A stretch of 64,000 bases of DNA from Candidatus Saccharimonadota bacterium (GTDB taxonomy: Bacteria; Patescibacteriota; Saccharimonadia; CAILAD01; BJGX01): positions 307,950 to 371,949 of the forward strand of contig JAXLZU010000001.1 of the NCBI GenBank assembly GCA_046350735.1. The letters run 5' to 3'. This document shows positions 33,933 through 64,000 of this stretch, piece by piece (positions within the stretch are counted from its first letter, which is position 1; each line of letters opens with the position of its first letter). The position numbers and the translations under genes were made by a program. The notes beneath the pieces were generated by a model, which saw nothing but the letters and a program-made list of their open reading frames with translations, ran no database searches and had not been told where the DNA came from.

Positions 33933-34014
33933 GGGTACGCCCTTCGTTGGCGAGGAGTCGAAGTTATTCTACATATTTATTAATTATTAGTCAAGAAAAT
34001 AGTAGTTTTGACTA

Positions 34015-34043
34015 TTGACACACTACATTTGTTTTGCTACAAT
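34015..34043 (+). promoter_or_regulatory. near-consensus sigma70 promoter (TTGACA-17 nt-TACAAT) driving the large non-coding transcript
   Basis: -35 TTGACA at 34015-34020, 17-nt spacer, -10 TACAAT at 34038-34043. Confidence 0.75.
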
Positions 34044-47663: not shown

Positions 47664-47678
47664 GCAAATATCAAAAAA

Positions 47679-47701
47679 CCACCTGAAAATGGTGGTTTTT
47701 T
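47679..47701 (+). terminator. rho-independent terminator after rpsG (CCACC-TGAAAAT-GGTGG + T6)
   Basis: Hairpin followed by TTTTTT immediately after the rpsG stop; in most bacteria fusA follows rpsG without a break. Confidence 0.7.
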
Positions 47702-47718
47702 GATATATAAAAACCCAA

Positions 47719-48108
47719 TCATTGCCGATTGGGTATATTTGCACGTTGATTCTTGACTCTCTGATAAATCTTTATCCCGGGCCAGCTTAGTAGCCAGATA
47801 GTAAAGATTGGCCAGCAAAGAATTGCTAAAACTATTTTTGGCTGAGTATCTACCTGGATCTTGCTCCAGCCTCGAAACCCATAGCAATACTTCTGAGAAA
47901 TCCTTTTTGATAGTGAGAAGGTATTGTTAAGCCAGGCTGGCGTTCCACTGAATAGTACGATTAGTACACGTATGGTAAAGTCGGGATTAACAGATATAAC
48001 CAGAATTAATGTAAAGAAGAAGAGGTAGCAAATATAGGCTTTTACTACAGCAAAGGCAAACTCACCATATGGCGCATTTCTCCTGCTAACGAGCTCTTCT
48101 GTCTCCAT
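47719..48108 (-). CDS. hypothetical membrane protein
   Basis: 129 aa with 3 TM helices; minus-strand terminator hairpin CCCAATC..GATTGGG at 47711-47738. Confidence 0.45.
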   Translation of the reverse strand: METEELVSRRNAPYGEFAFAVVKAYICYLFFFTLILVISVNPDFTIRVLIVLFSGTPAWLNNTFSLSKRISQKYCYGFRGWSKIQVDTQPKIVLAILCWPIFTIWLLSWPGIKIYQRVKNQRANIPNRQ

Positions 48109-48186
48109 GTCGCTCCATGGCCTAGAGGTTCAAAGCTAGAATATAATACCACAAATTATTAATTATTACAATAAAAAACCCAAACT

Positions 48187-48591
48187 CTAAAGTTCGGGTA
48201 GTGCAGCTAAAAGTGCTGCATACATCTCATCGATGATTTTCTGTAGCTCATCGATTTCAAACATCTGACATTCTTCAGAAAACTGGCTATATACAGCGAT
48301 GTACTTTTCTCTTAACTCGTAACTGTCAATCTCACCAAATCGATTTTGTTCGAAAGCATGCTTGAAGGCTTCCTCTGCTTCTTTCAATATTCTCTGCTTG
48401 AGCGTTGCTTTGTATTTGAGTAATTCAATCTTATTGGCAGAATTTTCTTCTAATTCATGGAGATATTTTGCTTGGTAGCTTCTTTTTTGTAGCAGAGCTA
48501 CGACTATATTGGTAATAACTTCAAGAACCTTTGTAATACTGAGAAAGATAACAAGAGCAAAGATGACATTGATTTCATCGGCTGTTGTCAC
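48187..48591 (-). CDS. hypothetical protein with N-terminal TM helix
   Basis: 134-aa ORF. Confidence 0.45.
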   Translation of the reverse strand: MTTADEINVIFALVIFLSITKVLEVITNIVVALLQKRSYQAKYLHELEENSANKIELLKYKATLKQRILKEAEEAFKHAFEQNRFGEIDSYELREKYIAVYSQFSEECQMFEIDELQKIIDEMYAALLAALPEL

Positions 48592-48666
48592 CCGTAACCA
48601 CCTCCTGGTACAAGACTACGATATATTATCATAATATTAGTATTTAGTAAATAAAAAACCCAATCA

Positions 48667-49212
48667 TTACTGATTGGGAAGTATTTTGGCCAGAACTTGG
48701 CTGAGACGTGGTTCGGCCAGGCCGGTGCCATAGTTCCACATTAACCCTTTATAGTGACGGCGACCATAGCTACCCAGCTCAATGCCGGTGTAGTGTTCTA
48801 CTATATCGGTTTGTTCATACGGAAAGTATTGGTACTTTGTCTTGCAGTAACCCGTAAAGAACCCTAATGCAATATATGCAAGCTCCATAAAACTAGTTGG
48901 TTGATTCGTAATCTCGATAAGCTCGACTTTGTAGAAGTAGGGGAGGTGTAGCTCGTCGTATGCTTCATCTCGAAAACAAGGTGTAGTGCACTGATATCTA
49001 CCCTCAGAGAGCTCATTATTGAGTATTAAGTGCAAAAAACTTTGCTCGCCGCTGGCTGGCAAAAACCCGCCAAGTGTAAAGAATGGAAAAGATCCTTCAG
49101 GAAAAGTTGCTTCGTATGCTTCTCGACAAACCACCCAAGGAACATCAATTTTTTTAAACCCCGCTGCTTCATAATAGGCTTCGGCAGCAGCAATTTTGGT
49201 GTGATCAATCAT
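48667..49212 (-). CDS. minimal class II aminoacyl-tRNA-synthetase-like catalytic-core protein (AspRS/AsnA-type motif 2)
   Basis: 181 aa carrying all three class II motifs in compact form: motif 1-like AGFKKIDVPWVV, motif 2 CFRDE(x9)YFYKVELIEI (compare E. coli AspRS CFRDEDLRADRQPEFTQID), motif 3-like GTGLAEPRL. Confidence 0.5.
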   Translation of the reverse strand: MIDHTKIAAAEAYYEAAGFKKIDVPWVVCREAYEATFPEGSFPFFTLGGFLPASGEQSFLHLILNNELSEGRYQCTTPCFRDEAYDELHLPYFYKVELIEITNQPTSFMELAYIALGFFTGYCKTKYQYFPYEQTDIVEHYTGIELGSYGRRHYKGLMWNYGTGLAEPRLSQVLAKILPNQ

Positions 49213-49472
49213 TTTCTTGCTCCGTTCTGGAATGCGCGAGCAGTGATATTACTCATAACAATCAGGTCATTCAGACTAATCGAAGGATGTTCTTCTTGTA
49301 GATAGAGACGAATGGCACCGATGAGATCACTCAACTCTTGCAGAGCCATCAGACTACATTCTTGTTCGAGTGCATCCTCAAACTCCTCAAGTTCCTCTCG
49401 TATCTTACCGGCGCTCCCTGTAGGTTGTTTTGCAATATCTGCTAGGTGGTAACCTGGTTTTTTTACCGGCAT
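49209..49472 (-). CDS. MazG-like all-alpha NTP pyrophosphohydrolase domain protein
   Basis: 87 aa; IREELEEFEDA...ELSDLIGAI...LNDLIV pattern typical of MazG/EE-x2-E all-alpha NTP-PPase; ATGA overlap with the downstream gene. Confidence 0.45.
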   Translation of the reverse strand: MPVKKPGYHLADIAKQPTGSAGKIREELEEFEDALEQECSLMALQELSDLIGAIRLYLQEEHPSISLNDLIVMSNITARAFQNGARK

Positions 49473-50119
49473 ATTGCCCCTCCTTTGGTCGTAGTAATAA
49501 TTAGCTCATGAACTTGTGCAATCTTTTCTTCGAGTGGAATTATAGAGCTAATACAATGGAAATTATTTCTTAGTTTCCAAACGTCAAAAGTGAGTTGGTT
49601 TACTCGCTTTGCATCCCCCAGGGATTCATATCGGTGCTCATTACCGATTTTGCCAAACAGATCGGGTTTGCCTACTGCGAGAGATTCTAGAAAAATAACT
49701 AGGTTATAACGACGTTGTAGCGTGTTTATAGTTATATCGAATTGGGATGTGAAGCCAGAAGTATTCTCGGGATGATAAGCAGCGATGTCAATCATTCCTC
49801 TGTCGCAGATCATTAAACTTTTTCTTTCAAGTCTAGCTTCTGCAACTGCTAAATCTTCTAGTGCTAACTGTGTATGATAGACTGCACTCTGAAAATGTCG
49901 CATCCAGCTATTAAATTGTTCATTACCAAGAAACCTTTGTGCTGGGGGTGGTGGAAACCCACCACTAAGAATAAGTGTGGCACATTCTGGTACAAAAACT
50001 GCTTCTTCATTCAATCTATCTTTTAATGCATTTACCACGGTAGTTTTACCTGCACATGGACCGCCAGTAATCACTATTTTTTTCATTTGTCTCCTTCGGT
50101 TGTTAAGGTACTTTTCCAC
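49463..50119 (-). CDS. P-loop NTPase / small-molecule kinase-like protein (AAA_28, NadR-RNK-like)
   Basis: Walker A ITGGPCAGKTT immediately at the N-terminus; 218 aa; no second AAA+ features. Confidence 0.5.
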   Translation of the reverse strand: MEKYLNNRRRQMKKIVITGGPCAGKTTVVNALKDRLNEEAVFVPECATLILSGGFPPPPAQRFLGNEQFNSWMRHFQSAVYHTQLALEDLAVAEARLERKSLMICDRGMIDIAAYHPENTSGFTSQFDITINTLQRRYNLVIFLESLAVGKPDLFGKIGNEHRYESLGDAKRVNQLTFDVWKLRNNFHCISSIIPLEEKIAQVHELIITTTKGGAICR

Positions 50120-50225
50120 ATTATATTTACCTCAAAATTTTATCTAGTCTAGAGATTTTTACTCAAAATTATTTAACCAATCAATAAATTGACTCAAATA
50201 ATCTGTGGATATATAGTACTTAGTA

Positions 50226-50894
50226 ATGACACATCACATCCAGAAACAGATTTTAGCCAAACTTATTTCACATCCGTATTTGCGGTTTAGCAGGCTAAAG
50301 CCAAGCAATATTGAGAGTAACCACTTTATGTACCATCTTAAATCTCTTATGCGAGAGGGTTTGGTAGTAAAAAACGACGAGGGTTTGTATTTACTTAGTG
50401 CCGAGGGTAAACAGTTTGCCGATAACTTAAGTCTCGATACATACAAACCTCGCAAACAGCCTAATATTGTCACACTGGTCACTTGTCAGAACGAAAAAGG
50501 GCAATGGCTGGTATACAAACGAGCTCGCCAACCATTAATTAACCAAGTGGGGTTTGTATATGGCAAAGTTCATTTGGGCGAAACAGTCTCAGAAGCTGCT
50601 CATAGAGAGTTAAAAGAAAAGACTGGCTTACAATGCGAGCTTACCCACAAGGGCGATGGCTACATTACTATTTACGAAAGTAATGAGCCTGTAAGTCAGA
50701 TACTGTTTCATATGTTTTATGGAAGAAATCCGTATGGAGAAATTAAGCCAACCAAAAAGCCGGGTACGGCCTCGTGGGCATGGCAAGAAGAATTTGGCCA
50801 CCCGCCTTATATGGCAAGCATGCCAGAGCTAGCCCGACTCGCTAAAGAACCAGGTGAGAGATTCTTTGTAGAACTAACATATAAACCAGGTTAG
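50226..50894 (+). CDS. winged-HTH + NUDIX hydrolase fusion protein
   Basis: N-terminal wHTH-like region; Nudix box GKVHLGETVSEAAHRELKEKTGL (Gx5Ex7REUxEExGU); 222 aa. Confidence 0.6.
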   Translation: MTHHIQKQILAKLISHPYLRFSRLKPSNIESNHFMYHLKSLMREGLVVKNDEGLYLLSAEGKQFADNLSLDTYKPRKQPNIVTLVTCQNEKGQWLVYKRARQPLINQVGFVYGKVHLGETVSEAAHRELKEKTGLQCELTHKGDGYITIYESNEPVSQILFHMFYGRNPYGEIKPTKKPGTASWAWQEEFGHPPYMASMPELARLAKEPGERFFVELTYKPG

Positions 50895-50945
50895 AGATAT
50901 AAAAAATTGGCCTTATCTCTAATAAGGTAAATAAAAACCCCAACC

Positions 50946-51527
50946 TTAGTTGGGGGTAGTGGTGAGTTTTTGGATGACAAATTTGTCTCTGTCTCGATCA
51001 AAAATCTGCTTCATCCGAAATTCGATTTCGGAGAGCAATTTGTCTAGATCAAAACCCATTAGCCTATATTGTGACATGAGAGAATTCAAAATAGGGTAAG
51101 GAATTTCTTGCAAGAAGAAGCAACGATCATACGGAATTCTAACCATATCATTTGGATCATAATCGTCCCAAAATGACCACTCTACATATATTACTTCAGA
51201 ATCAGTATTATTCAATTTATTTGCAGCAATCATGCAAAGTGCATACACCAAATATTGTACACGATTCATGCCCTCAGTGATTTTTTGGTTTAGTTCGTTT
51301 CGCAGGGTTTCTGTACTGAGATCGAGAATCTGATCGTAGGTAAGACCAAGCTTCTCACAGTGCTCTACTACAACTGCAGAACTTTCTGGCTCGGAGAATC
51401 CATCTACTACGGCAATCTCCCAGAAGACACTGGCAATAGATTCTACAGCAAACACCGAATCTGGAAATTCCTTCTTTTTGGCAATTTCGAGTAGTATTGG
51501 GAGGGCTGCAACGAGTTTCTCGTCCAC
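50946..51527 (-). CDS. hypothetical protein
   Basis: 193-aa ORF preceded by a CCCCAAC..GTTGGGG terminator hairpin at 50934-50960. Confidence 0.4.
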   Translation of the reverse strand: MDEKLVAALPILLEIAKKKEFPDSVFAVESIASVFWEIAVVDGFSEPESSAVVVEHCEKLGLTYDQILDLSTETLRNELNQKITEGMNRVQYLVYALCMIAANKLNNTDSEVIYVEWSFWDDYDPNDMVRIPYDRCFFLQEIPYPILNSLMSQYRLMGFDLDKLLSEIEFRMKQIFDRDRDKFVIQKLTTTPN

Positions 51528-51607
51528 TTCTGGGCCTTTCGAGGTACGAATAGGTATGTATAAACATATACTTCATAGGTGTATTTGTCAAGTAAAAAGC
51601 CCCGGTG

Positions 51608-51844
51608 TTAACCAGGGCGAAGAGAATAGAGGGAATACGCTATCATTAACGCTGCAGATGTCCAAAATACAAACAAGACCCCTAGTAGTGCATTTCTATC
51701 GCTTCTGCGTAGATACTTGGCCATCTCAGCCGAGCTTGCGCCTTCGTAATTACTTGGCGATTTACGCCAGCCATAAATAAAGACAAAGCCAAGAGCAATC
51801 AATACAACTGATAGAAAAAGCAAAAAACCTATCCCGATACTCAT
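51608..51844 (-). CDS. small hypothetical membrane protein (2 TM)
   Basis: 78 aa. Confidence 0.4.
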   Translation of the reverse strand: MSIGIGFLLFLSVVLIALGFVFIYGWRKSPSNYEGASSAEMAKYLRRSDRNALLGVLFVFWTSAALMIAYSLYSLRPG

Positions 51845-52275
51845 CGTCGGTGCTTGTTTCGGTATCTGCGTGCACGGGCATTATTGGCTTTCTCTGAAGC
51901 TTCAGATGAGTCGATTACCTTAATTTCTGTTAGTTTGGGTAAAACACATTCCTGCACACAGTTAAAGTGCAAGTGGCAATGCTGCCATCTTTTCGACATT
52001 TGAATACGCCTCATAATGACGTGGTCAGCACCAATCGGAATCTCGAGTTGACAACAGTAACAACGATATGGCTTCTTTGCAAAAGACTGGGCGAGAAAGA
52101 TAGTGATGTAATTACTATCTTTTGCGCGTAATGCCTGTCGCTTATTTGGTAAATCAATAAACTTTTGCAAATCCTCTTCGGATGGTGGACTTGAAAGGCC
52201 CAAGGTATTCACCCCATTTCTCGAAGGTACTGATTTAACAGAAGTTATAATACATATATTTATACATATTGTCAA
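51841..52275 (-). CDS. hypothetical Cys/His-rich protein (start uncertain)
   Basis: YRCYCCQ...HCHLHFNCVQEC motif; the track start is TTG; the true start may be an internal ATG. Confidence 0.3.
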   Translation of the reverse strand: MTICINICIITSVKSVPSRNGVNTLGLSSPPSEEDLQKFIDLPNKRQALRAKDSNYITIFLAQSFAKKPYRCYCCQLEIPIGADHVIMRRIQMSKRWQHCHLHFNCVQECVLPKLTEIKVIDSSEASEKANNARARRYRNKHRR

Positions 52276-52306
52276 TAATATAATGTTATTGATAGTCTGG
52301 TTATTA

Positions 52307-52335
52307 TTGCCACATTTATAACAATCTGCTACAAT
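52307..52335 (+). promoter_or_regulatory. candidate sigma70 promoter for fusA (TTGCCA-17 nt-TACAAT)
   Basis: -35 at 52307-52312, -10 at 52330-52335; ~70 nt upstream of the fusA ATG. Confidence 0.55.
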
Positions 52336-52407
52336 TATTCAGAAATAGCCATTATTTGGCGCTTTTTCATTTTTGCAATAATTATAGAAGGAGAGAATAC
52401 AAACCCC

Positions 52408-54534
52408 ATGGCGCGCGATTATAGCTTAGAAGACACCAGAAATATTGGTATTATTGCCCATATTGATGCTGGTAAAACTACCGTTACCGAAGGTGTACTA
52501 TACCGAACAGGTAAGGTGCATAAAATTGGTGAAGTTCACGAAGGTGAAGCCACCATGGACTGGATGGAACAAGAACGTGAACGTGGCATTACTATTACCT
52601 CTGCTGCTACCACATGTTTCTGGAACAACAAGCGCATTAATATTATTGATACTCCTGGTCATATCGACTTTACTGTAGAAGTAGAGCGCTCTCTTCGTGT
52701 GCTTGATGGTGCGGTTACTGTATTCGACGGCAAAATGGGTGTGGAGCCGCAAAGTGAAACTGTGTGGCGTCAAGCTGATAAATATGGTGTACCACGCATT
52801 TGTTTTATTAACAAAATTAACCAAACCGGTGGTGACTTTTATAAATCGTTAGAATCTATTCACGAACGACTTACTAAGCACGCGTATCCCATTCACTTGC
52901 CAATTGGTTTCGAGCAGCAAATAAATGGTGTAGTAGACCTTATTAGTATGAAGGCATACACCTATAAAGACTACACTGACAAAGAACTTATTGAGGGTGA
53001 AATTCCTGCAGATATGAAAGAAAAGGCTGAAAAATATCGTCAGCACCTAATAGAAGCTGCAGTAGAAGCTGATGATGCAGTTATGGAGAAATATCTAGAA
53101 GGTACCGAGCTAAGTGATGAAGAAATAAAGACCGTTATTCGCAAGTCGGTACTACGTGGAGACTTCTTTATTGTTTCTGGTGGTGATGGCCGTGGTGTAA
53201 TTGTAGAGAAATTACTCGACATTATTACCGACTACCTACCAAACCCACTCGAGGTAACTCCACCGCTTTCTATCGATACCAAGACAGGCGAAGAAAAAGT
53301 ACTAGAAGTGAGCGATGACGCACCTTTTGCTGCGTTGGCCTTTAAGATTGCTACCGATCCATTTGTGGGTAAACTAGCTTTCTTTAGGGTGTATGCAGGT
53401 ACGGTAAAGACTGGTAGCTATGTGCTCAATAGCAGTACTGGCGAAAAAGAACGTATTGGTCGTATTGTACGAATGCATGCCAATAACCGCGAAGAAGTAG
53501 ATGAAGTATATGCTGGCGAAATTGCAGCAGCAGTAGGTCTAAAAGCAACAATTACCGGTAACACCTTGTGTGATCCGGGTGGAAACATTGTTCTTGAGAG
53601 TATTACCTTCCCAGAACCTGTTATTAGTATTGCTATCGAGCCAAAAACTAAGGCCGACCAAGAAAAGATGAGTATAGCACTTGGTCGCTTGGCCGAAGAA
53701 GACCCTACCTTTAGGGTGCACACCGACGAAGATAGTGGCCAAACCATTATTGACGGTATGGGCGAGCTTCATCTCGAGGTGATTGTTGATAGAATGAAGC
53801 GCGAATTTAAAGTAGAAGCTAACGTTGGCCGACCACAGGTAGCCTTTAGAGAAACCATTAAAGGTACCACGCAGATAGAAGGTAAGTTTGTTAGACAATC
53901 TGGCGGACGTGGTCAGTTTGGTCATGTTTGGCTCGAGCTTAGTCCGTTAGTAAAAACCGAAGATGACGAAAAAGGTAAGATCTTTGAGTTTGAAAATGCC
54001 ATTGTTGGTGGTGCGGTACCAAAAGAATACATTAAGCCAGTAGAGCAAGGTATTATTGAGGCTATGAGTAACGGTGTTATTGCTGGTTACCCTGTAGTGG
54101 ATATTCATGCCAAGCTTTACGATGGTAGTTATCACGAGGTAGATAGTAGTGAGGTGGCCTTTAAAATTGCTGCTTCTATGGCCTTGCAAGAAGGTGTCAA
54201 AAAAGCCCAGCCAGTTATTATGGAACCTATTATGAAGGTAGAAATTACTACCCCAGAAGAATCGATGGGTGATGTTATAGGTGATATTAATGCCAAACGT
54301 GGACGAATAGATGAGATGGAAGACCGAAGTGGCGCCAAGGTTATTCGATGTTTTGTTCCACTTGCTGAAATGTTTGGTTATGCCACAAGTCTTCGTAGTC
54401 TTACTCAGGGTCGCGCCAGTTATGCTATGGAGTTTGACCACTACGCCGAAGTGCCTGGTAATGTAGCCGAAGAACTCAAAGGCAAATACACTGCCGCTAG
54501 AGAATCTGGCGACGCCTCGGCTCGCGCTAGCTAA
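52408..54534 (+). CDS. fusA: elongation factor G
   Basis: 708 aa; GTPase motifs [18 protein letters not shown]. Confidence 0.97.
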
Positions 54535-54669
54535 TATATTGTTCGAGGTAATTCTAGGGCTATAGTTCTTACTTTGTTCGAACAATAAGACAATCTCAAA
54601 AAAAGACTCGTTCCCTGGGTCTTTTTTTGTAATAAAAAATCCCAGTTTTTCACTGGGAAATAGTACTCA

Positions 54670-55218
54670 TTATCCTGGGACAGGTGGAGGTAAGGCATTA
54701 GGAGAAGGTACTTTAATATTCTTGACAGCTTTTGCCAAGGTTTCGGCTTTTTGTCGAATCCAACCCTTTCCTCGCGGTATTGTATCGGCTGCAAAATAGA
54801 TAGAAACCGAATATAGCAGCCAACTCAGATCAACAAGAGCGTGAAATTTATCGCTATTCAACAGATCAGTAATTAGGAAAAAGAGATTAATAGTACCTAG
54901 ACCTAGCCTGATAACAATCCATCCATCCCCATTAAACTCACTTTTTAGCTTGGCATCAGAACCAGACTCAAGGTTCTGTTGGTCTTTGCGAAATAGCAAA
55001 ATTAGCATAATAAAAGCCATAAAGATAGCTAGCCATACTAACCCATCTAATGCATCAAACTTACCAATTGAGTACTTATAAAAGTAATAAAGTGTCGTAA
55101 CTAATTCAGAAAAAATTACGACTGCTATGGCAAAAAAATAGTTCGATCTACCAGTTAGCTTACACAAGAAGCTTAATGGCACATGCAAAATGCTTGCAAT
55201 AAATTGGTCAATTTTCAT
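54670..55218 (-). CDS. hypothetical integral membrane protein
   Basis: ATG at 55218 with GGGAGG RBS chosen over the longer track ORF; ~5 TM helices. Confidence 0.45.
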   Translation of the reverse strand: MKIDQFIASILHVPLSFLCKLTGRSNYFFAIAVVIFSELVTTLYYFYKYSIGKFDALDGLVWLAIFMAFIMLILLFRKDQQNLESGSDAKLKSEFNGDGWIVIRLGLGTINLFFLITDLLNSDKFHALVDLSWLLYSVSIYFAADTIPRGKGWIRQKAETLAKAVKNIKVPSPNALPPPVPG

Positions 55219-55445
55219 ACATCCAGCCTCCCTAGAAAGGTGCGAAAGTATCAAATACTATAGCATCTAAATATAGTTATTACAATAAAAATTATTATGC
55301 TTGCAAAATAGCACAAAAAGCGTATTGTTGTTCTTGCCTTCCTGGGTTGGTGCAACCTCGTAAAATCGCTACAGCGACTAGCGGGGGAGTGAAGCGGGCG
55401 GAGTAACCCACTTTTCAGCCACCGGCGAGTAGCAAGGAGATTAGT

Positions 55446-55718
55446 ATGAGCGATGAGCCGGATCAGGAAGAAGTAAGGCAAGTTAATGACGATGATTGGC
55501 GTTCTCGTCCACTAACGCGACGACAAAAGCCAGCTCCAAAAGAACCTGATGTACCTGTAACAAGTGCAGAAGAACTCGCCGCAGAGCAGCGAGAGATACA
55601 AACATTTTTGCAGGCCAGCCAGCAGGCCGGGGTAGACCCTAGTGTCTTAACCGAGCGTCTTGGAAAAGTAGCCGAGCGCCTTGCTAAAGAAGACGATAGC
55701 ACTAACTCTTTGGAGTAG
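55446..55718 (+). CDS. hypothetical acidic protein (GC-rich gene with GC-rich 5' leader)
   Basis: AAGGAG RBS; 90 aa, low-complexity acidic; followed by a CTCCTACC..GGTAGGAG + T6 terminator at 55727-55757. Confidence 0.4.
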   Translation: MSDEPDQEEVRQVNDDDWRSRPLTRRQKPAPKEPDVPVTSAEELAAEQREIQTFLQASQQAGVDPSVLTERLGKVAERLAKEDDSTNSLE

Positions 55719-55865
55719 TTTAGTCACTCCTACCACAACCGGGTAGGAGATTTTTTATCCTACTAAAAAAGAATAGGTGAGCCTCTCTTGTATAATGATT
55801 TATGCAGAAGAGCAATCTTATGATAGAATATGGTCTGTCCTCAAACCCTTCCATCAGGAGGCTAA

Positions 55866-56138
55866 ATGGACGGAATGTACCTCGACGAACCTTTAGAACG
55901 ACTCAAGTTTGCATTGTTTGTTGTGGCTATTACGCTTTTCTCAATAATTATCTGTGTAGGCTTTGTGGCCTGGATATTCACCGGTGATATCGATATTCTG
56001 GCACGTACTTTGCTAGTGTTTGTTATTGCAACCCTCATGGTCCGTTTCTTTTTTGGCTATGAAGCTGAGGGGTATCGACCATCTCCTCCAGATAGTTCTC
56101 ATCCTGATATGGACGTTTGGACAGAAGATGAGCTCTAA
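55866..56138 (+). CDS. small hypothetical membrane protein (2 TM)
   Basis: 90 aa; followed by a terminator at 56142-56169. Confidence 0.4.
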   Translation: MDGMYLDEPLERLKFALFVVAITLFSIIICVGFVAWIFTGDIDILARTLLVFVIATLMVRFFFGYEAEGYRPSPPDSSHPDMDVWTEDEL

Positions 56139-56141
56139 GTA

Positions 56142-56169
56142 TAGACCTTTGTTTGCAAGGGTCTTTTTT
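56142..56169 (+). terminator. rho-independent terminator (AGACCTTTG..CAAGGGTCT + T6)
   Basis: 9-bp hairpin with one GU pair, followed by TTTTTT. Confidence 0.7.
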
Positions 56170-56183
56170 CATAATAAAAGCCT

Positions 56184-56212
56184 TTACAAATCGAGAGAGA
56201 TTAGCTATACTA
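56184..56212 (+). promoter_or_regulatory. candidate sigma70 promoter for tuf-rpsJ (TTTACA-17 nt-TATACT)
   Basis: -35 at 56184-56189, -10 at 56207-56212. Confidence 0.5.
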
Positions 56213-56287
56213 AATACAAGCTATTCCAAGGCGATTTTTTATTGTCTAAAATAATATATTAATAACCCAAAATAATAAGGAGAAATA

Positions 56288-57469
56288 ATGGCAGATTTTA
56301 AGCGCGACAAACCACACGTTAATGTAGGTACTATGGGTCACGTCGACCACGGTAAAACTACCTTAACTGCAGCTATCACTCACGTTTTGGCAAAGAAATT
56401 GCCTAGTGATGTAAACAAACCAATTAAGTACGACGAAATCGATAAGGCTCCAGAAGAAAAAGAACGCGGTATTACTATCGCTACTTCTCACCAAGAGTAC
56501 GAAAGCGAAAAGCGTCACTATGCTCACGTTGATATGCCTGGTCATGCCGACTACGTTAAGAACATGATTACCGGTGCTGCACAGGTAGATGGTGCTATCT
56601 TGGTAGTAAGTGCAGCTGATGGTCCTATGCCACAAACTCGCGAGCACGTATTGCTTGCTAAGCAAGTTGGTGTGCCAAAAATCTTAGTTTTCATGAACAA
56701 GATGGATATGGCCGACCCAGAACTTGCCGAACTCGTTGAAGTAGAAATTCGCGAACTCTTAGAAAAATACGATTTCGACAAAGATGCTCCAATTGTTAAG
56801 GGTTCTGCTCTTAAAGCTCTAGAAGGCGACGCTGCATCAGAAGATGCCATTATGGAGCTCGTAAAGGCTATGGATGAATACATTCCAGAACCAAAGCGCG
56901 ATCTCGACAAGCCATTCCTTATGCCAATCGAAGACGTATTCTCTATTAAGGGTCGTGGTACTGTTGCTACCGGTCGTATCGAACAAGGTAAAGTTAATAT
57001 TAACGACGAAGTTGAAATTGTTGGTATTAAAGACACTTCTAAAACCGTAGTAACCGGTGTAGAAATGTTTAAGAAAATGCTCGACGAAGGTCAAGCTGGT
57101 GATAACGTAGGTATCTTGCTTCGTGGTATTGAACGCGATGATATCGAACGTGGTCAGGTACTTGCCAAACCAGGCAGCATTACTCCACACACCGAATTTG
57201 AATGTGAAGTATATGTTCTTAAAAAAGAAGAAGGCGGACGTCACACCCCATTCTTTAAAGGCTACAAGCCACAATTTTACTTCCGTACTACCGACGTTAC
57301 TGGCGAAGTAGAGCTTCCAGAAGGTACCGAAATGGTAATGCCTGGCGATAATATCTCTGTTAAGGTAAAACTCCTTGCTCCAATCGCTATGGAAGACGGC
57401 TTACGCTTTGCTATCCGCGAAGGTGGTAAGACTGTTGGCGCTGGTGTTGTAACTAAGATTATCAAGTAG
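56288..57469 (+). CDS. tuf: elongation factor Tu
   Basis: 393 aa; [18 protein letters not shown] motifs. Confidence 0.97.
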
Positions 57470-57484
57470 TAGAATACAAATACC

Positions 57485-57805
57485 ATGCCAGACGCACCAA
57501 CCAAGCAACGTATCCGCATTAAGCTAAAAGCTTATGACAATAAAGTAATGGATCAGTCGACTAAGCAAATTATCGATACCGCTATTCGTACTGGTGCGAA
57601 TGTAGCCGGGCCTATTCCTCTACCTACCGATAAGAAGAAGTACACTGTTAACAAGAGCCCACACATCTATAAGACCTCACGAGAGCAGTTTGAAATGCGT
57701 ACTCACAAACGTCTTATCGATATTACCGAGCCAACACCTAAGACGATTGATAATCTCATGAATCTTAGCTTGCCAGCCGGTGTAGACATCGAAATTAAAA
57801 TGTAA
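57485..57805 (+). CDS. rpsJ: 30S ribosomal protein S10
   Basis: [11 protein letters not shown]...PLPT...[21 protein letters not shown]; 106 aa. Confidence 0.95.
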
Positions 57806-57821
57806 AACATACAATCTAAAA

Positions 57822-57845
57822 GGGCTCCTCTAGAGGAGCCCTTTT
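57822..57845 (+). terminator. rho-independent terminator directly after rpsJ (GGGCTCCTC-TA-GAGGAGCCC + T4)
   Basis: Perfect 9-bp palindromic hairpin; its position is unusual because rplC normally follows rpsJ. Confidence 0.7.
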
Positions 57846-57942
57846 AGATTACTAATAAATTGATGATAGTACTAATGACTAATATAAATAACCTAACAAC
57901 TTCTTAGCATATAAAAAACCCCAGATTTCTCTGGGGTATAAA

Positions 57943-59355
57943 TTACTCTTTGTCAGTTTCTGCTTTTTCTATCATAGTACGAATATCTCGCTGCATACGA
58001 GCCTTAATAAAACGTGGAAGCTTATAGTAGCCTTCAATACTTGGTGAAATATGGGGTCGTACAAAGGTAAAACCTGGTTTGATATAACGAATTACTCTCA
58101 AGCCTGTTGTTTTTTCAAACTCTTCTAGCTCAATACGGTGCTTCGCGCTCATGTTCTTTCCATCGGGCAAACGTCGCAAGTGCCCAGTTACGTGGTGTGG
58201 CTCACGGGTAATTGCGTTCAAGATGGGTTTACGTGGCTCGACTTCTTGCTGGCGTCCAGCTTTGTCGACATAAGTACGGCGTATGTATAAGAAATGTTCT
58301 GACGAATCAGAATCTGAGTATGGTTGTCCCGACTTCGGCTCATGATCTGTCGAGGGTTCAACAACGATCGTGTCCGCTGTCACCAGATCGTGATAGACTG
58401 AGCAAATCAGAAATACAACATTTTTAAAAATATTTGAATCATTGGATCCTAACTTGATTTCATCATCAAGATCTGTGTCCGTCAGAAAAGCCTCTTCGTT
58501 AATAAAGTAAGTTGCCTTTTTGCCACTGCTATCCACAAGGAATACCTGAAACTGCAAGTAGTCATCAAACGTGGGAAGTACTAAGAGCTGTAGTTCTACA
58601 ATCGCACCATAACCAGAAAGTCTTACCCGTACACCTCGCTCGTGCACAAGATATCGTTGATTGTAGTATGCGTCTTCCAGAAATTTTCTTGACTCTATCA
58701 AGATATCTGAGTTAGGTTCTTGTTCTAAAATATGTGAATTTTGAACCCAAAGGTTAATGTCACGGGGGTCGGGGTAAAAATCAATAGCACTCTCTGAAAC
58801 CGTACACATATCAATTGAGTATCCTACAAGCTTTCGTAGTACATCAAATATATCGTCAGCGGTATTGAGCCTGGTTTTGTATTTCTTATAGATGAGCTGC
58901 CCAGTACTACGGTTCTTGCCTAGCAAAAATTGCTTTTCGTTACCGATAAGTATACGAATGGTGGCAAAATACAGCATTAACACATTCCCAAGAGTATTTT
59001 CGTATGTGCCTGACTCTGTTTGGCCAAGGGTAATGTGTGCAATTTGAATTAAGATGTTTAATTCATTGACGTTATCCGCAAAATATTCGGGCACCCCAGA
59101 AAAAAGTTGTGCAATATTGTGGTAATATTGTCTCTCAGCTTCATTGGTCTGCATACCGTTCCGCACATTTTGCTTGCATGCCTCGATGATTAATAGCAGT
59201 TCATGGACAACGGTTTCAAGATATTTATGTCCCCTGGCAAAAACTTCATCCTCACTAACAAATGGGTATTTTTGCATGTGTGTATCGACATCACTAAAGA
59301 GACTAACGCAAGTTTCTGCGAACACGTTGGTAACTAGGCGGGGTTTACGCCACAT
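57943..59355 (-). CDS. large hypothetical protein (471 aa), no recognisable domain
   Basis: ATG at 59355 with GGGGTGG RBS (the track start TTG 59373 is slightly longer); own minus-strand terminator CCCCAGA..TCTGGGG at 57914-57940. Confidence 0.5.
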   Translation of the reverse strand: MWRKPRLVTNVFAETCVSLFSDVDTHMQKYPFVSEDEVFARGHKYLETVVHELLLIIEACKQNVRNGMQTNEAERQYYHNIAQLFSGVPEYFADNVNELNILIQIAHITLGQTESGTYENTLGNVLMLYFATIRILIGNEKQFLLGKNRSTGQLIYKKYKTRLNTADDIFDVLRKLVGYSIDMCTVSESAIDFYPDPRDINLWVQNSHILEQEPNSDILIESRKFLEDAYYNQRYLVHERGVRVRLSGYGAIVELQLLVLPTFDDYLQFQVFLVDSSGKKATYFINEEAFLTDTDLDDEIKLGSNDSNIFKNVVFLICSVYHDLVTADTIVVEPSTDHEPKSGQPYSDSDSSEHFLYIRRTYVDKAGRQQEVEPRKPILNAITREPHHVTGHLRRLPDGKNMSAKHRIELEEFEKTTGLRVIRYIKPGFTFVRPHISPSIEGYYKLPRFIKARMQRDIRTMIEKAETDKE

Positions 59356-59433
59356 GATACCACCCCATGTCAAGGTCCTGGACTGAGCTTATATTAACAT
59401 AAATATAATAATTTGTAAATAAAAACCCTAGAG

Positions 59434-59913
59434 CTATCTAGGGAGAGGCTGGAGCAAATCAACTATGTAGCGTTCATTTAGACCAGCTGTAAAGAGTAAA
59501 TTTACCACTTTGTATGGGTCTTCATCTCTAATGCGAGCCATATCAATCTCGAGCGAGTAGGGCCGCAAAAAACTCGGTAGAGTAGGCTGTGCCAAAAAAG
59601 TAATTACTCTCTTAAGCAGTTCATCGCTACTGCATTCCGGCTCGCGAAATCGTGTTTCTGATATAGGAATACGAGGAGCGTGAAAATGCAGGGTGTTATT
59701 AAACTTCCTCACCGCCCGTGGCGAAGACAGCACAATTAAGAATGGTTCTTCTTGCCAGGTCCAATCGCCAAGGCCACGCGTGGCGGCAATGGCCCAAGCA
59801 ATGTCTGAATTTCGCAAGCACTTCATTAACTGAATATAGGTGACCTGATCGATTCTACCAGTAATTACTTCGAGACGGCCAATATCTGGGTCGTTCGGAA
59901 AAGGATGATCCAC
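59434..59913 (-). CDS. hypothetical protein
   Basis: 159 aa; GTG start with AGAAAGG RBS; candidate TTGCAC-17-TACAAT promoter upstream on the minus strand at ~59945-59975; terminator hairpin CCCTAGA..TCTAGGG at 59422-59445. Confidence 0.4.
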   Translation of the reverse strand: MDHPFPNDPDIGRLEVITGRIDQVTYIQLMKCLRNSDIAWAIAATRGLGDWTWQEEPFLIVLSSPRAVRKFNNTLHFHAPRIPISETRFREPECSSDELLKRVITFLAQPTLPSFLRPYSLEIDMARIRDEDPYKVVNLLFTAGLNERYIVDLLQPLPR

Positions 59914-60072
59914 CTGGAATGACCTTTCTGGTTGGAGAGAGCAGAGGTACGGCGAAATAGGATTGTATCAAGCAAATTGGCTGCGTGCAAGTAGTGAGAC
60001 AAAATAAAAACCCCGTCTGCTGATGCAAACGAGGAATGTCGAGCTCCAATCTCGACAGCGAACTTGTGGGGG

Positions 60073-60525
60073 TTAGCTGCTACGGTCGGTAACGAGCTGT
60101 AGTGAGGCGGATCTAGCGGTAAGCCGGTCGTACAGGTGAGGAAGCTGCTTCTCGAAAAAGCTTCGCAACGCAGAGGCAGAAGATCCGCTAAGGCGCTGCC
60201 GCTTCAACTGGCTTGGCATGATGTTGCGATACCTAGCGACAGAATCGAAGATGGCTGAGATCTGCCCCTCGACAAACTTCTCGTCAGGAACGATGGCCAC
60301 CACGGTGTTGCTGAGCCGAATAACCGTGATGCCATTCCGGTCGAGATAGCCTTCGATGGTATCTCCAAACCCGCTCTTGGTCTTCTCGCACATCGGCATG
60401 CTAATCAGCATTACCGTGCGACGTCTTTTGGTATTACCTACTTTCTGTGTTGGGTAGAACATGGCATACTCAGCTACCAAGCAACTACCCTCTTCTGAAG
60501 ACGGGGGTTTTTGATCTTGTGTCAC
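60073..60525 (-). CDS. hypothetical protein (GC-rich gene)
   Basis: 150 aa; GTG start with AGAGGGAGAGAGA RBS; a central segment VMLISMPMCEK...GITVIRLSNTVVAIVPDEKFVEGQISAIFDSV has a Rossmann-like alternation. Confidence 0.4.
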   Translation of the reverse strand: MTQDQKPPSSEEGSCLVAEYAMFYPTQKVGNTKRRRTVMLISMPMCEKTKSGFGDTIEGYLDRNGITVIRLSNTVVAIVPDEKFVEGQISAIFDSVARYRNIMPSQLKRQRLSGSSASALRSFFEKQLPHLYDRLTARSASLQLVTDRSS

Positions 60526-60729
60526 TCTCTCTCCCTCTGTGATTGATGAGCGACTGCGGATAGGTACTTTTGCATCGTTGCGAGATTGCAGCGATAAATT
60601 TTATAGTAGCCCTAATAATATAATACTGTCAATATATTTTGTGAAGCATACTACAAAAGCTTGCGCTTTATTCTTAAGCTGTATTACAATGTGTTTAAGT
60701 TAAAAAATGCTATTAAAAAAGGAGATAAA

Positions 60730-61095
60730 ATGCCAGAAGATAAAAAACCAGCAACAACAAGTAATGATTCAAATGATACCCTGATGGGTGTATTGGCGTA
60801 TTTAGGAATTCTATGTCTTATACCTTTTCTTGCAGCAAAAGACTCTAAATTTGCTCAATACCACGCTAAGCAAGGTCTTACACTATTCATTTGCGAAGTT
60901 GGTGTAACTGTATTGTGGTGGGTAATTATGTTTATTAGCGCATTTGGCGGATTAGGCTTCTTAGGTCTACTTGGTCTATTAGTATGGCTTGTTCAGATTG
61001 GTTTCTTTGTACTATCTATACTCGGTATTGTTAATGTTGTTAACAAGAAGATGGTTCCACTACCAATTATTGGTGGTCTCAATATCATCAAGTAA
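60730..61095 (+). CDS. DUF4870-like small membrane protein
   Basis: ATG at 60730 with AAAGGAGA RBS; motif LAYLGILCLIPFLAAKDSKFAQYHAKQG typical of the DUF4870/YhaH-like family; 121 aa. Confidence 0.5.
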   Translation: MPEDKKPATTSNDSNDTLMGVLAYLGILCLIPFLAAKDSKFAQYHAKQGLTLFICEVGVTVLWWVIMFISAFGGLGFLGLLGLLVWLVQIGFFVLSILGIVNVVNKKMVPLPIIGGLNIIK

Positions 61096-61139
61096 TTGCC
61101 AATCTTTAAACAGGCTTGCCTGTATATAAAAAATCCCCC

Positions 61140-61628
61140 ATGCCAAAACGTAAACAAAATAGCAAAGCCTATAGCTGGAATAGTAAGAACTCCACGGGAG
61201 TAATGTCTGCTCTAGATAAGGTCTTTGGAGAAAAAGGTCCACTTCAGCTGCCCAATTCTGTAAAAGATTGGGTGGCGGAGTGGGTTTGGGTGTTTGCACT
61301 TATTGGTGTAGTTATTCGTGGATTTGGCCTGCTAACTCTACTTGGGCTTGGTGCAGTATTTTCTGGAGTAGCAGCATCTACTGGCACATTTAGCTTCTTC
61401 TCGACTATTGGGTTTGGGATAGTATTTTTGGCTGCCGAGGGAATTTTGCTCCTTATATCTATTCCGGGCTTAAAACACAAAAGGCTACTTGGGTGGGACT
61501 TTGCCTTTTATGCCGAAGTAGTGGCCATTGTAGGTAATTTACTTAATCTAAATATAATTGGGGCAATCATCTCGGCGATTATTGGGTTTTATTTCTTGTT
61601 TCAGATTAGATCTCGATTTAGAAAATGA
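61140..61628 (+). CDS. hypothetical membrane protein (4 TM)
   Basis: ATG 61140 chosen over TTG 61116; hydrophobic helices throughout. Confidence 0.4.
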   Translation: MPKRKQNSKAYSWNSKNSTGVMSALDKVFGEKGPLQLPNSVKDWVAEWVWVFALIGVVIRGFGLLTLLGLGAVFSGVAASTGTFSFFSTIGFGIVFLAAEGILLLISIPGLKHKRLLGWDFAFYAEVVAIVGNLLNLNIIGAIISAIIGFYFLFQIRSRFRK

Positions 61629-61876
61629 GCACAAAAAAACCAAAACGCTCCATTGCTCGAGACTTTGTCTTTTTGGTAAAAGCAGCTCTTTATCTTCTTT
61701 TGGGCACAATTTGGATTAGTTTTGGCGGCCATCGTTTGTTACCTGTGGGTCTAGTGCTGGGGTTTGGCTTCTCTCAGCTAGATTTTTTACGGATAGATAG
61801 AAAAATCGAATATGCATTATTGGTGGTTGGCGCACTTCTGGGTCTGTATGGCCTAGGCATTACAATTCAGCTATAG
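61625..61876 (+). CDS. small hypothetical membrane protein
   Basis: 83 aa; ATGA overlap with the upstream gene. Confidence 0.4.
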   Translation: MSTKKPKRSIARDFVFLVKAALYLLLGTIWISFGGHRLLPVGLVLGFGFSQLDFLRIDRKIEYALLVVGALLGLYGLGITIQL

Positions 61877-61884
61877 TTTTAGGG

Positions 61885-61914
61885 TTGACATTTCAGGTAA
61901 GTTTCTGATACACT
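61885..61914 (+). promoter_or_regulatory. candidate sigma70 promoter for the rplC-rplD-rplW-rplB operon (TTGACA-18 nt-TACACT) followed by a structured ~130-nt leader
   Basis: -35 TTGACA at 61885-61890, -10 at 61909-61914; the leader carries a CTGAACA...TGTTCAG stem (61976-62024) enclosing TCGGT-AAAA-ACCGA, followed by a T-rich run. Confidence 0.5.
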
Positions 61915-62045
61915 ACTAGGCGACTAAAGAAATCTTCTAGATAGTGAAGTTTTACTTCTCAAAAGTCACCCCAGCTGAACATAGGAAAGGTCGGTAAAAA
62001 CCGAAACCATCAAGTGTTCAGATATTATTTTTTAAATTTGTTTTT

Positions 62046-62657
62046 ATGAAAGCTTTAATCGCCCAAAAGATTGGTATGACTCAAGTGTTCTCGGAAAAGG
62101 GAACAGTTATTCCTGTTACATTACTTTTGGCAGGCCCATGTGTGGTGACTCAAGTTAAGACTGACGAGACTGATGGTTATAGTGCTGTTCAGCTTGGTTA
62201 TGGTGAAGCCAAAAAGTTGGCCAAACCACAGGTTGGCCATGTCAAAAAAAGTGGTGCTACCCCAAAGACTCTCAGCGAATTTAGAATTGAAGGTGAAGAC
62301 GATATGCCGAAAGTTGGTGATAGCATTACTGCCGAAGTTTTCTCTGTTGGTGACACTATAACCGTAAGTGGTGTTTCTAAAGGAAAAGGCTTTGCCGGAA
62401 CAATTAAGCGTCATAATTTTGCTCGTGGTCCAAAAACTCATGGTAGTCACAATTATCGGGCTCCAGGTTCGATAGGTGCTGGTTATCCACAGCATGTTTT
62501 TAAGGGTCAAAAAATGGCTGGTCATATGGGTAATGCACAGGTTACAACCAAGAATCTTACTGTGGCGCATGTAGATGCTAAAAACAACATTATTGGTATT
62601 AAAGGTGCCATTCCTGGACCTAAAAAATCAATTGTACGAATATGGGGGATCGCATAA
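62046..62657 (+). CDS. rplC: 50S ribosomal protein L3
   Basis: [25 protein letters not shown]...; 203 aa. Confidence 0.96.
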
Positions 62658-63313
62658 TGAAGGCTGCTACCTTTTCTAAGAATGGTACAAAAGCTGCCGA
62701 AACGGTATTACCAAAAGCAGTTTTTGAGGCAGAAGTAACCGAGGTTACCCTGCAACAAGCAGTAGTGCGTGCCAATGCTAATTTGCGTCACGCAAACGCC
62801 AAAACACTTACCCGTGCTGAAGTTCGGGGCGGTGGTCGTAAGCCATGGCGACAGAAAGGTACTGGTCGAGCTCGTTTTGGTTCGACACGCGTTCCTATCT
62901 GGCGAAGTGGTGGTGTTGCGCATGGCCCTCATGGAGAGCAAAACTACACCAAAGATATGCCCAAAAATATGGTTCACGCTAGTGTTCGTATGGCTCTTAC
63001 CACTCAAGCCAATACTGTTATTGTAGTCGAAAAGTTTGAAGTAAAAGAGCCAAAAACTCGCCTGGCAATAGATCTTATTGATAAGTTAAATGCCGAAGGT
63101 AATGTAATTATTATTTCATCAGCTCTAAGCGAGCCTACACTACTTGCACTTGCTAACGTGCCAGGTGTTATGGCAATTCGCCCAACCCAGTTACGGGCAT
63201 ACGATGTTATGATTGCCGATACTATTATTATCGAAAAGCCAGCTTTGAGCGACCTTGAAAAGCAGTATGGCAAAGCCACAAAACAACCGGCAGCTATGAA
63301 AGGTAGCAAATGA
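62657..63313 (+). CDS. rplD: 50S ribosomal protein L4
   Basis: ATG overlapping the rplC stop (TAATG); [10 protein letters not shown]...[17 protein letters not shown]. Confidence 0.93.
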
Positions 63314-63597
63314 AAACAGTAGGTTTACGACCAATTATTAGCGAGAAGAGCATGAATATGGCCGCCACAGGTGTATATATGTTTGAAGCTAATAAAGCAG
63401 CCAATAAGATGGAAATTGCTAGCGAAGTAGCCAAGCTCTTTAAGGTAAATGTAGTCGCTGTACGTACTACCATCCTAAAAGGCAAAGTAAAGCGCTTTAA
63501 GGGAGTTACAGGTACACGCAAAGATACCAAACGTGCCTTTGTACAGCTTAAAGAAGGTCAAAAGATTACTATTTTTGACGCCGAGGAGAAGAAATAA
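63310..63597 (+). CDS. rplW: 50S ribosomal protein L23
   Basis: 95 aa; the L23 core is recognisable; ATGA overlaps with both neighbours. Confidence 0.92.
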
Positions 63598-64000
63598 TGG
63601 CTACTCGAACCGTCAAACCAAATACTGGTGCTCGTCGCAACATGAGTTTTGCTGACTTCTCAAAACTTACTCGTAAAAAACCAGAAAAATCATTACTTAT
63701 TAGCAAGAAGCAAAAAGCTGGTCGTAACAACACAGGGAAGATAACAATACGTCATCGTGGCGGTGGTGCTAAAAAACATATACGAATAGTTGATTTTCGT
63801 CTCGATAGTGTTGAAGATGCAAAAATCTTGGCGTTCGAATACGACCCAAATCGTAGCGCTCGTCTGGCTCTCTTGCAACTAAGTGACAATAGTAAAGCGT
63901 ATATCTTGGCTACAACTGGTATGAAGATTGGTCAGACTATTAGTGCTGGTAAAGAAGTTGAAATCCGTTCTGGTAACCGACTCAAATTACGAGATATCCC
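63597..64000 (+). CDS. rplB: 50S ribosomal protein L2 (3' end truncated by window edge)
   Basis: Translation [23 protein letters not shown]...IRHRGGGAKKHIRIVDF matches the L2 N-terminus; this ORF is not in the supplied track because it runs off the window. Confidence 0.9.
   Translation, partial: MATRTVKPNTGARRNMSFADFSKLTRKKPEKSLLISKKQKAGRNNTGKITIRHRGGGAKKHIRIVDFRLDSVEDAKILAFEYDPNRSARLALLQLSDNSKAYILATTGMKIGQTISAGKEVEIRSGNRLKLRDI

Follow-up and report, generated by a model that had tools for sequence, protein, structure and literature searches.

Can the adjacency of rpsJ and rplC be lost for good, and what then comes to lie between the two genes? In the canonical S10 operon, as found in Escherichia coli and Bacillus subtilis, the order is rpsJ-rplC-rplD-rplW-rplB and onwards. 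A different arrangement is present in the metagenome-assembled genome of a Candidatus Saccharimonadota bacterium (GenBank assembly GCA_046350735.1; Candidatus Saccharibacteria, or TM7, in the NCBI protein records), of which we analyzed a stretch of 64,000 nucleotides (nt), here called the window (contig JAXLZU010000001.1, positions 307,950 to 371,949). In the map of its open reading frames (ORFs), rpsJ (57485-57805) and rplC (62046-62657) are separated by 4,240 bp carrying six ORFs, three on the minus strand followed by three on the plus strand. A sequence-only reading of this DNA had taken the whole 4.2 kb to be one cargo inserted into the S10 operon. The comparisons reported below lead to another answer: the break in the S10 cluster is likely to be fixed in the lineage, with an inherited core of orphan genes and two small slots whose turnover is driven by recombination, and is not a recent 4.2-kb insertion.

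The rpsJ-rplC gap and its core genes

In all of the 79 control loci from other phyla, rplC follows rpsJ after 16-104 bp (median 28), in agreement with the sequence-only reading both that this adjacency is highly conserved in bacteria and that it is broken here. The control loci were a by-product of an RpsJ scan over a species-representative genome collection; the matches came nearly all from Actinomycetota and Bacillota, and included a single useful Saccharibacteria locus (L020). An assembly artefact is ruled out by two independent contigs, L009 (JGI 3300006092) and L016 (Logan SRR26348419, 4 samples), which are 100% identical to the window across the junctions. Beyond the break the cluster is in order: rplC, rplD and rplW lie in the window, and in same-species contigs the downstream order rplC-rplD-rplW-rplB-rpsS-rplV-rpsC-rplP-rpmC-rpsQ is intact. 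We found no literature on a split between rpsJ and rplC in Saccharibacteria.

Is the DNA in the gap foreign? Relatives were sampled as contigs with identical RpsJ or RplC and as contigs with more distant homologues of a 159-amino-acid (aa) protein encoded in the gap. Every one of them has the same five genes in the same order between rpsJ and rplC: genes for proteins of 159 and 150 aa on the minus strand, then genes for proteins of 121, 162 and 83 aa on the plus strand. In the most distant relatives that have this core, protein identity is down to 70% for the 159-aa homologue and 62% for the 150-aa homologue. Pairwise ratios of nonsynonymous to synonymous substitution rates (dN/dS) are 0.09-0.14 for the 159-aa gene, 0.18-0.19 for the 150-aa gene (0.35 against the same-species contig L002, where there are only 11 differences), 0.00-0.13 for the 121-aa gene, 0.00-0.05 for the 162-aa gene and 0.02-0.11 for the 83-aa gene; the last three proteins are as constrained as ribosomal proteins. 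The dS of the 159-aa gene (~0.6) is near that of rplC (0.72-0.74), and the other core genes have higher values (0.9-2.0). By these comparisons the five are real genes, vertically inherited under purifying selection. Since they occupy the junction in every relative and are under such selection, the alignments indicate that the break is ancestral to a genus-level Saccharibacteria group.

Two of the core families are very small. Among 5.8 billion sequences the 159-aa family comprises 7 clusters and the 150-aa family 6, and for the former all contigs inspected place the gene at the rpsJ-rplC junction. The break itself would be older than its present content, because L020, from another Saccharibacteria species (RpsJ 90% identical), has neither rplC nor any of the five core genes in the 2.2 kb after rpsJ.

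These results bear directly on the view that the whole 4.2 kb is recent, horizontally acquired cargo, an island or a defence locus that split an intact S10 operon. That view could draw on six genes that carry no functional annotation, on the atypical GC content of the 150-aa gene, on the separate terminator of each minus-strand gene and on the unbroken adjacency in the loci of other phyla. But five of the six genes are at the junction in all relatives under purifying selection, with a dS for the 159-aa gene near that of rplC; orthologues of the 150-aa gene at dS > 1 have an unchanged GC content; and the interval gave no PADLOC match, integrase, transposase or repeats. Comparison with relatives largely refutes the idea of a single cargo, and we regard it as extremely improbable. 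The sequence-only reading had itself proposed that related genomes be compared and had held that shared gene content would speak for an ancestral arrangement; some 2.5 kb of the interval is shared in this way by all relatives.

The features of the junction, in window coordinates, are as follows.

56288-57469, plus strand: tuf (EF-Tu), with its stop 15 bp before rpsJ
57485-57805, plus strand: rpsJ (ribosomal protein S10), the probable final gene of its unit
57806-59411, 1,606 bp: slot A cassette, strain-specific, in place of 29 bp of L002
57811-57852: two-way intrinsic terminator, a perfect 19+19-nt palindrome between an A-run and a T-run; a component of the cassette
57937-57918, minus strand: predicted terminator of the 470-aa gene (consensus scan)
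57943-59355, minus strand: 470-aa gene (NCBI MFO0862463.1, hypothetical protein U0516_01970)
59391-59419, minus strand: promoter-like site of the 470-aa gene, TTTACA-17-TAATAT with an upstream TG, 9/12 matches
59434-59913, minus strand: 159-aa gene, a conserved orphan; predicted terminator at 59443-59426
60073-60525, minus strand: 150-aa gene, a conserved orphan, GC-rich; predicted terminator at 60034-60011
60526-60729: intergenic region between divergent genes, with promoter-like sites on the minus strand (60645-60603) and the plus strand (60578-60607)
60730-61095, plus strand: 121-aa gene, a conserved DUF4870-like membrane protein
61140-61628, plus strand: 162-aa gene, a conserved membrane protein with 4 predicted transmembrane segments
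61625-61876, plus strand: 83-aa gene, a conserved membrane protein; the first 4 bp overlap the end of the 162-aa gene
61876-61883: slot B, empty here, with 444 bp in the sister strain L002
61885-61914, plus strand: predicted rplC promoter, TTGACA, 18 nt, extended -10 (TGATACACT)
61975-62021, plus strand: leader hairpin, followed by a T-run (62022-62033) that ends 12 nt before the rplC ATG
62046-62657, plus strand: rplC (L3), which opens the rplC-rplD-rplW-rplB... cluster

The six ORFs lie where the sequence-only reading had placed them, its 471-aa protein being 470 aa long from the ATG, a start backed by an N-terminal MW[KR]xP motif that is invariant across 33 homologues. Its three co-directional genes for small membrane proteins (60730-61876) also hold good, with 2-4 predicted transmembrane segments in each product. 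It had recognized no family among the hypothetical proteins, and none of the six proteins matched a housekeeping or defence family in our searches; a PADLOC run, which it had suggested, returned no defence model for any of them.

Two of the core proteins can be described a little further. The 121-aa protein resembles DUF4870 over most of the profile (E = 4.3e-5) with a score of 23.9 bits, just under the curated gathering cut-off of 25, and PF09685 is listed in the precomputed annotation of its orthologues. The DUF4870 family has no known function. The 159-aa protein has no Pfam or NCBIfam match; its model (predicted local distance difference test score, pLDDT, 83) consists of a ferredoxin-like beta-alpha-beta-beta-alpha-beta domain with a helical tail. 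Identity to its structural matches is 5-12%, and with the ACT, PII-like and ferredoxin-like regulatory domains it shares the fold only, having neither sequence-level membership nor a ligand-binding motif; the modelled fold is too generic for a function to be assigned.

The 150-aa gene had been called clearly foreign on its base composition. The composition is indeed atypical: its GC content is 0.525, and 0.616 at third codon positions (GC3), against a window mean of 0.423, so that the gene ranks among the top ~2% of 450-bp windows. The foreign origin did not hold up, because orthologues at dS > 1 have the same GC (0.52-0.54) and GC3 (0.59-0.63). Since the odd composition is kept in all orthologues, it appears to be maintained and gives no sign of recent transfer. 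Structured RNA was considered for this region and rejected: folding z-scores were -1.39 and -0.02, there was no Rfam match, and a dN/dS of 0.18 speaks for a coding gene. Two apparent irregularities in the core were likewise dismissed. A 172-aa plus-strand gene that, in the public gene calls, seemed to replace the 150-aa gene in L001, L003 and L008 (~10993-11511) is an antisense ORF, the GC-rich DNA being open on both strands, and the 150-aa ORF is intact there. In L105 the 150-aa gene seemed to be missing; an uncalled orthologue is present.

Other GC-rich ORFs occur in the window. Two with a GC content of at least 0.50 lie on the minus strand between dnaE and rplS (8517-8951, 144 aa, and 9000-9419, 139 aa), in a region with no Rfam match. 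Together with the 150-aa gene and one for 90 aa at 55446-55718, these ORFs hint at a possible class of GC-rich orphan genes wedged among housekeeping genes in this 42% GC genome.

Two variable slots and a diverged tract

What part of the interval, then, does vary? The most informative comparison is with the same-species contig L002 (GCA_964570715.1), whose flanks are 99.8-99.9% identical to those of the window and which shows two indels at the junction. In the first, slot A, 1,606 bp of the window (57806-59411) stand where L002 has 29 bp with a different rpsJ terminator hairpin. Within this cassette are the palindromic terminator and a promoter-like site, as well as the 470-aa gene followed by a terminator of its own; the composition of the cassette is native-like (GC 0.413, GC3 0.389). 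In the second, slot B, 8 bp of the window (61876-61883) stand where L002 has 444 bp with a gene for a 92-aa minus-strand membrane protein of borderline similarity to SMR small multidrug-resistance proteins. The claim of an insertion therefore stands for 57806-59411, which replaces 29 bp in L002, and falls for the remaining ~2.5 kb.

Slot A, right after rpsJ, has six states among relatives, and slot B, just before the rplC promoter, has two, being either empty or occupied by the 92-aa gene. The states of slot A are these.

Empty: L002, L001 and L122
470-aa gene: the window strain, L009 and L016
129-aa orphan gene: L005
184-aa orphan gene: L121
ABC-F-type ATPase, 548 aa: L105
HAD-like hydrolase gene: L123-125

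The occupant in L105, which comes from a related species (GCA_023261595.1, 3403-5049), lies on the rpsJ strand and has two ABC_tran domains and an ABC_tran_Xtn domain. Here a gene of the translation-factor or ribosome-protection type sits at a ribosomal junction.

Neither slot bears the marks of a mobile element. The interval has no ORF for an integrase or transposase, Pfam and NCBIfam detect none among the six genes, and the base-exact borders against L002 show no target-site duplication, att site or terminal inverted repeat; the sequence-only reading, which had seen no integrase, transposase or flanking direct repeat, was correct in this. The only repeat that could be put forward as a target-site duplication is an imperfect, terminator-like one of 23 nt with 78% identity, which is at chance level, and it was rejected. 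It consists of the terminators of the 470-aa gene (57914-57936) and the 159-aa gene (59421-59443), direct repeats 1,507 bp apart that roughly bracket the cassette. Their likeness may reflect convergence or be a trace of cassette assembly.

What marks the junction instead is a change in divergence. Single-nucleotide polymorphisms (SNPs) between the window and L002 number 5 in 52000-57000 and 8 in 57013-57799, which covers the 3' end of tuf and rpsJ (among them 57790, 57796 and 57799 at the 3' end of rpsJ); there are 56 in 59414-61901 and 0 in 61902-64000. The 64 SNPs from 57013 to 61901 define a tract of ~4.9 kb, diverged by 1-2% between flanks that differ by at most 0.1%; slot A lies within this tract, slot B marks its end, and between the indels the divergence is ~2.2%. 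Relaxed constraint is no explanation, because synonymous sites share in the excess, with 6 synonymous differences from L002 in the 162-aa gene and 0 in rplC (612 bp). The pattern points to homologous recombination with a conspecific donor diverged by ~2%, or to old haplotypes reshuffled by recombination.

The second of these possibilities can be carried further: the 470-aa gene might be ancestral at this site and have been lost by deletion from the sister strain and other species, so that old haplotypes coexist. It would suit this account that one strain has the 470-aa gene without the 92-aa gene and the other the reverse, that the two differ by ~2.2% between the indels with nearly identical flanks, and that the cassette is native-like in composition. 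We nevertheless consider it unlikely, given that no other species of the genus has the 470-aa gene in slot A, which there is empty or holds unrelated genes, and that the closest of the other family members has only 28-33% identity. Homologous recombination would in any case still be required for the mosaic of divergence.

How might donor DNA reach the chromosome? Saccharibacteria are naturally competent, and cassettes integrate through flanks of ~1 kb (Wang et al. 2023, PMC10633639). In that work a promoter-gene-terminator cassette with homologous flanks enters the chromosome without a recombinase of its own, as we suppose for slot A; there the integration is experimental, in Southlakia and Nanosynbacter, whereas competence of the present organism is presumed. 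The data support the recombination step, and from the parallel we infer entry by transformation.

Similar variation is seen upstream. Between rpsG and fusA (47664-52407) there is a 4.7-kb accessory block that includes a NUDIX hydrolase gene. For fusA and tuf the identity to L002 is 99.9%, but the block reaches only 93-97% and is non-homologous over 48182-48691; it resembles another recombination mosaic at a junction with accessory genes. The fusA-tuf junction (54535-56287) is also interrupted, by genes for a 182/194-aa minus-strand membrane protein, a 90-aa protein whose gene is GC-rich (GC 0.505) and a 90-aa membrane protein. Its content varies too: L005 is without the 182-aa gene, and L105 has genes for 116- and 111-aa proteins instead.

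The 470-aa protein family

The occupant of slot A in the window strain belongs to a family that is rare, patchy and always encoded by a lone gene. A word-indexed search returned 35 homologues, and a profile search of 1.84 billion representatives gave 180 matches at E <= 1e-3. The full-length matches are nearly all of 430-490 aa with one architecture, and the shorter ones correspond to part of the profile. Besides the N-terminal MW[KR]xP, the conserved motifs are LLEDAYYNQRY, IYHDLVTA, SWIYIPR, PHRVxGHxRR, GYTFVRPH and LPRFIRxRIQ; a literature search with them found nothing. The protein has no match in Pfam, NCBIfam, PHROGs or PADLOC. Its structural model is confident, yet no PDB or BFVD entry matched it; against PDB profiles the best E-values were 0.28 for the whole protein and 1.5 for a C-terminal sub-profile, and sub-domain profiles found nothing in PDB or Pfam.

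Does genomic context help? All-against-all ORF clustering of 20 loci (19 fetched plus the window) revealed no conserved partner. One homologue lies in an integrative element with two serine recombinases, a relaxase, a coupling protein, AbiEii and Mrr; others lie in a ParB region, among type IV pilus genes or next to a LexA-fused methyltransferase; and the remaining contexts are housekeeping (secA/serS, mltG/rpoB, ftsW/murG). By tblastn, the family is absent from PLSDB plasmids and INPHARED phages, also when the search included a distant phage relative. That relative is a protein on a phage contig whose C-terminal module is distantly related to that of the family (hhalign 94.6%). It is a 474-aa protein of the IMG/VR phage contigs L106 (800-2224) and L107, encoded near genes for a PAPS-reductase-like protein, portal, terminase and ParB; it shares with the family only this module (...AHAVRAFYRQ...GYTFVRPHLRG) and has no match in catalogued phages.

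A nucleic-acid or phosphate-handling activity is a guess, prompted by the invariant residues (Glu, His-Asp, and several Arg and His). It is possible, if doubtful, that the 470-aa protein works by itself as an enzyme or binding protein on nucleic acid, and that it is non-essential and sporadic in distribution. Two more specific proposals were weighed. The first is that the 1.6-kb cassette is a selfish or self-mobilizing unit, the 470-aa protein being, for example, a free-standing homing-type nuclease or a new recombinase that places its own gene beside conserved ones. The family is always lone, has no conserved neighbour, is at a different site in every genome and is often beside highly conserved genes (rpsJ as well as the mltG/rpoB, secA/serS and ftsW/murG contexts); the conserved residues fit a nucleic-acid enzyme; one homologue is inside an element with serine recombinases, a relaxase and a coupling protein; and a distant relative of the C-terminal module is encoded on a phage contig. 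In genomes of ~0.8-1 Mb, however, most neighbours are core genes anyway, and known plasmids and phages lack the gene. The cassette has no terminal repeats and no duplication, and the ~4.9-kb tract far exceeds the gene and includes a second, unrelated indel, which general homologous recombination fits better. We judge self-mobilization very unlikely.

The second proposal is a single-gene anti-phage or anti-plasmid defence, with slot A as a small defence islet. Presence or absence that varies at strain level in a rare and patchy family is what might be expected of such a system, and two homologues have suggestive neighbours, an AbiEii gene and an Mrr-type restriction gene in one case and the LexA-fused methyltransferase in the other. 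But PADLOC-DB v2, run on 33 members of the family, gave only scattered single matches (E >= 0.004) and none at a meaningful E-value, most contexts are housekeeping, and the other occupants of slot A (ABC-F ATPase, HAD-like hydrolase, small orphans) are not defence genes. A defence role is quite unlikely on this evidence. A broader conjecture is that the family has a new fold, is directed at nucleic acid for defence or selfish ends, and spreads as a lone cassette among small-genome Patescibacteria through transformation followed by homologous recombination; the slot next to rpsJ would then be among its preferred landing sites because the flanks there are nearly identical across strains. This we offer as speculation, with little confidence.

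Probable transcription units and the reading of the locus

How is a ribosomal cluster broken in this way transcribed? The sequence-only reading had inferred a strong terminator directly after rpsJ, a terminator for each minus-strand gene, and a consensus-like promoter with a structured leader before rplC. All these elements were recovered, the proposed rpsJ terminator (57822-57845) being the core of the palindrome at 57811-57852, and the promoter and leader of rplC are conserved across species. Terminator-like sites are enriched in the region (21, against 6.0 +/- 2.8 in shuffled sequences); promoter-like sites are not (14, against 16.9). Taken alone, the match of the rplC promoter is not significant. 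What supports the promoter is conservation and not the scan match: five species or strains, in which the neighbouring genes are at dS 0.7-0.9, all keep the two hexamers unchanged. The leader hairpin and its T-run are kept in four species (17 pairs, 2 of them with compensatory changes), and the folding energy of the hairpin is modestly better than that of shuffled sequences (z = -1.59). It has no match in Rfam, including the Rfam ribosomal-protein leaders.

At the other end of the break, tuf and rpsJ probably form one transcription unit, since the 15-bp gap between them holds no terminator-like site in the consensus scan. The same scan shows no terminator from the 121-162-83 membrane-protein genes to the rplC promoter, and transcription of these three genes may therefore read through into rplC.

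These observations can be assembled into the history that we consider likely. An ancestor of the genus-level group would have lost the rpsJ-rplC adjacency; rpsJ would have become the end of a tuf-rpsJ unit closed by a two-way terminator, and rplC with the genes after it would have gained a strong promoter and a conserved hairpin leader of their own. The gap would have been filled by five lineage-specific genes, two for soluble orphans on the minus strand and three for small membrane proteins on the plus strand, bordered by slots A and B, whose contents turn over between species and strains. In the window strain slot A holds a self-contained 1.6-kb cassette of terminator, 470-aa gene and putative promoter, with slot B empty. 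Cassettes would be swapped by homologous recombination through the conserved flanks, tuf/rpsJ on one side and the core block on the other, the incoming DNA entering most likely by natural transformation. Exchange by homologous recombination would explain why no integrase, transposase or target-site duplication is present.

Several points weigh against this reconstruction. The diverged tract could represent two old haplotypes in the population and not one import, and gain of the 470-aa gene here is indistinguishable from its loss in the sister strain, no outgroup having the gene. The operon boundaries come from consensus scans, in which promoter-like matches are no commoner than in shuffled sequence, and the z-score of the leader hairpin is modest. 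The persistently high GC3 of the 150-aa gene is not accounted for by this history. Finally, the single genome-collection scan was dominated by RpsJ proteins of other phyla and so gave little on how deep the break goes within Saccharibacteria.

Elsewhere in the window, about 1 kb at 34000-35000, upstream of the trigger-factor gene, reaches a GC content of 0.60 without a convincing ORF. ARAGORN makes an odd call there ('tRNA-???', 34849-34918), and except for two spurious sRNA matches Rfam gives nothing even at E < 0.1. This could be an unrecognized structured RNA.

To which known arrangements does the locus compare? With the canonical S10 operon it shares genes, order and orientation, and is intact from rplC onwards; it differs in that rpsJ appears to be terminated and lies 4.2 kb from rplC, and in that the putative promoter and leader precede rplC and not rpsJ. 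In cyanobacteria, plastids and archaea the str operon ends with rps10 (rps12-rps7-fus-tuf-rps10). Here likewise rpsJ comes directly after tuf, apparently as the end of its unit, and the rplC cluster starts alone. Yet that cluster is still nearby and not elsewhere in the genome, and the str part is itself interrupted by lineage-specific genes at rpsG-fusA and fusA-tuf. A mobile island or transposon is a poor match, with no mobility gene or border repeats, and with absence from close relatives only for 57806-59411. There is a parallel with the core-flanked gene-exchange hotspots, or genomic islets, that are maintained by homologous recombination. These have in common with our locus identical conserved flanks around differing content, no integrase or repeats, and elevated divergence across the tract; here the slots are very small (single genes), lie inside the most conserved bacterial gene cluster and stand beside a fixed block of orphans. 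We regard the locus as a further hotspot of this kind, unexpected in its position.

The interest of the finding is moderate and mainly for Patescibacteria genomics and marker-gene binning. The syntenic set of ribosomal-protein markers on which phylogenomics and binning draw includes both rpsJ and rplC. At the variable slots several contigs break off: the first base of L016 is at 57821 and the last of L009 at 58277, L013 begins shortly before the rplC promoter, and L019 is a further case. Because contigs end there, strain variation at the junction fragments assemblies and can leave S10 apart from the remaining markers. A well-defined target is offered by the 470-aa family for structural and functional work, and the five orphan genes inside the translation super-cluster are reasonable targets for Saccharibacteria genetics. 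For the biology of these ultra-small, naturally competent epibionts, the locus indicates that a highly conserved adjacency can break permanently and then serve as a small site of gene exchange.

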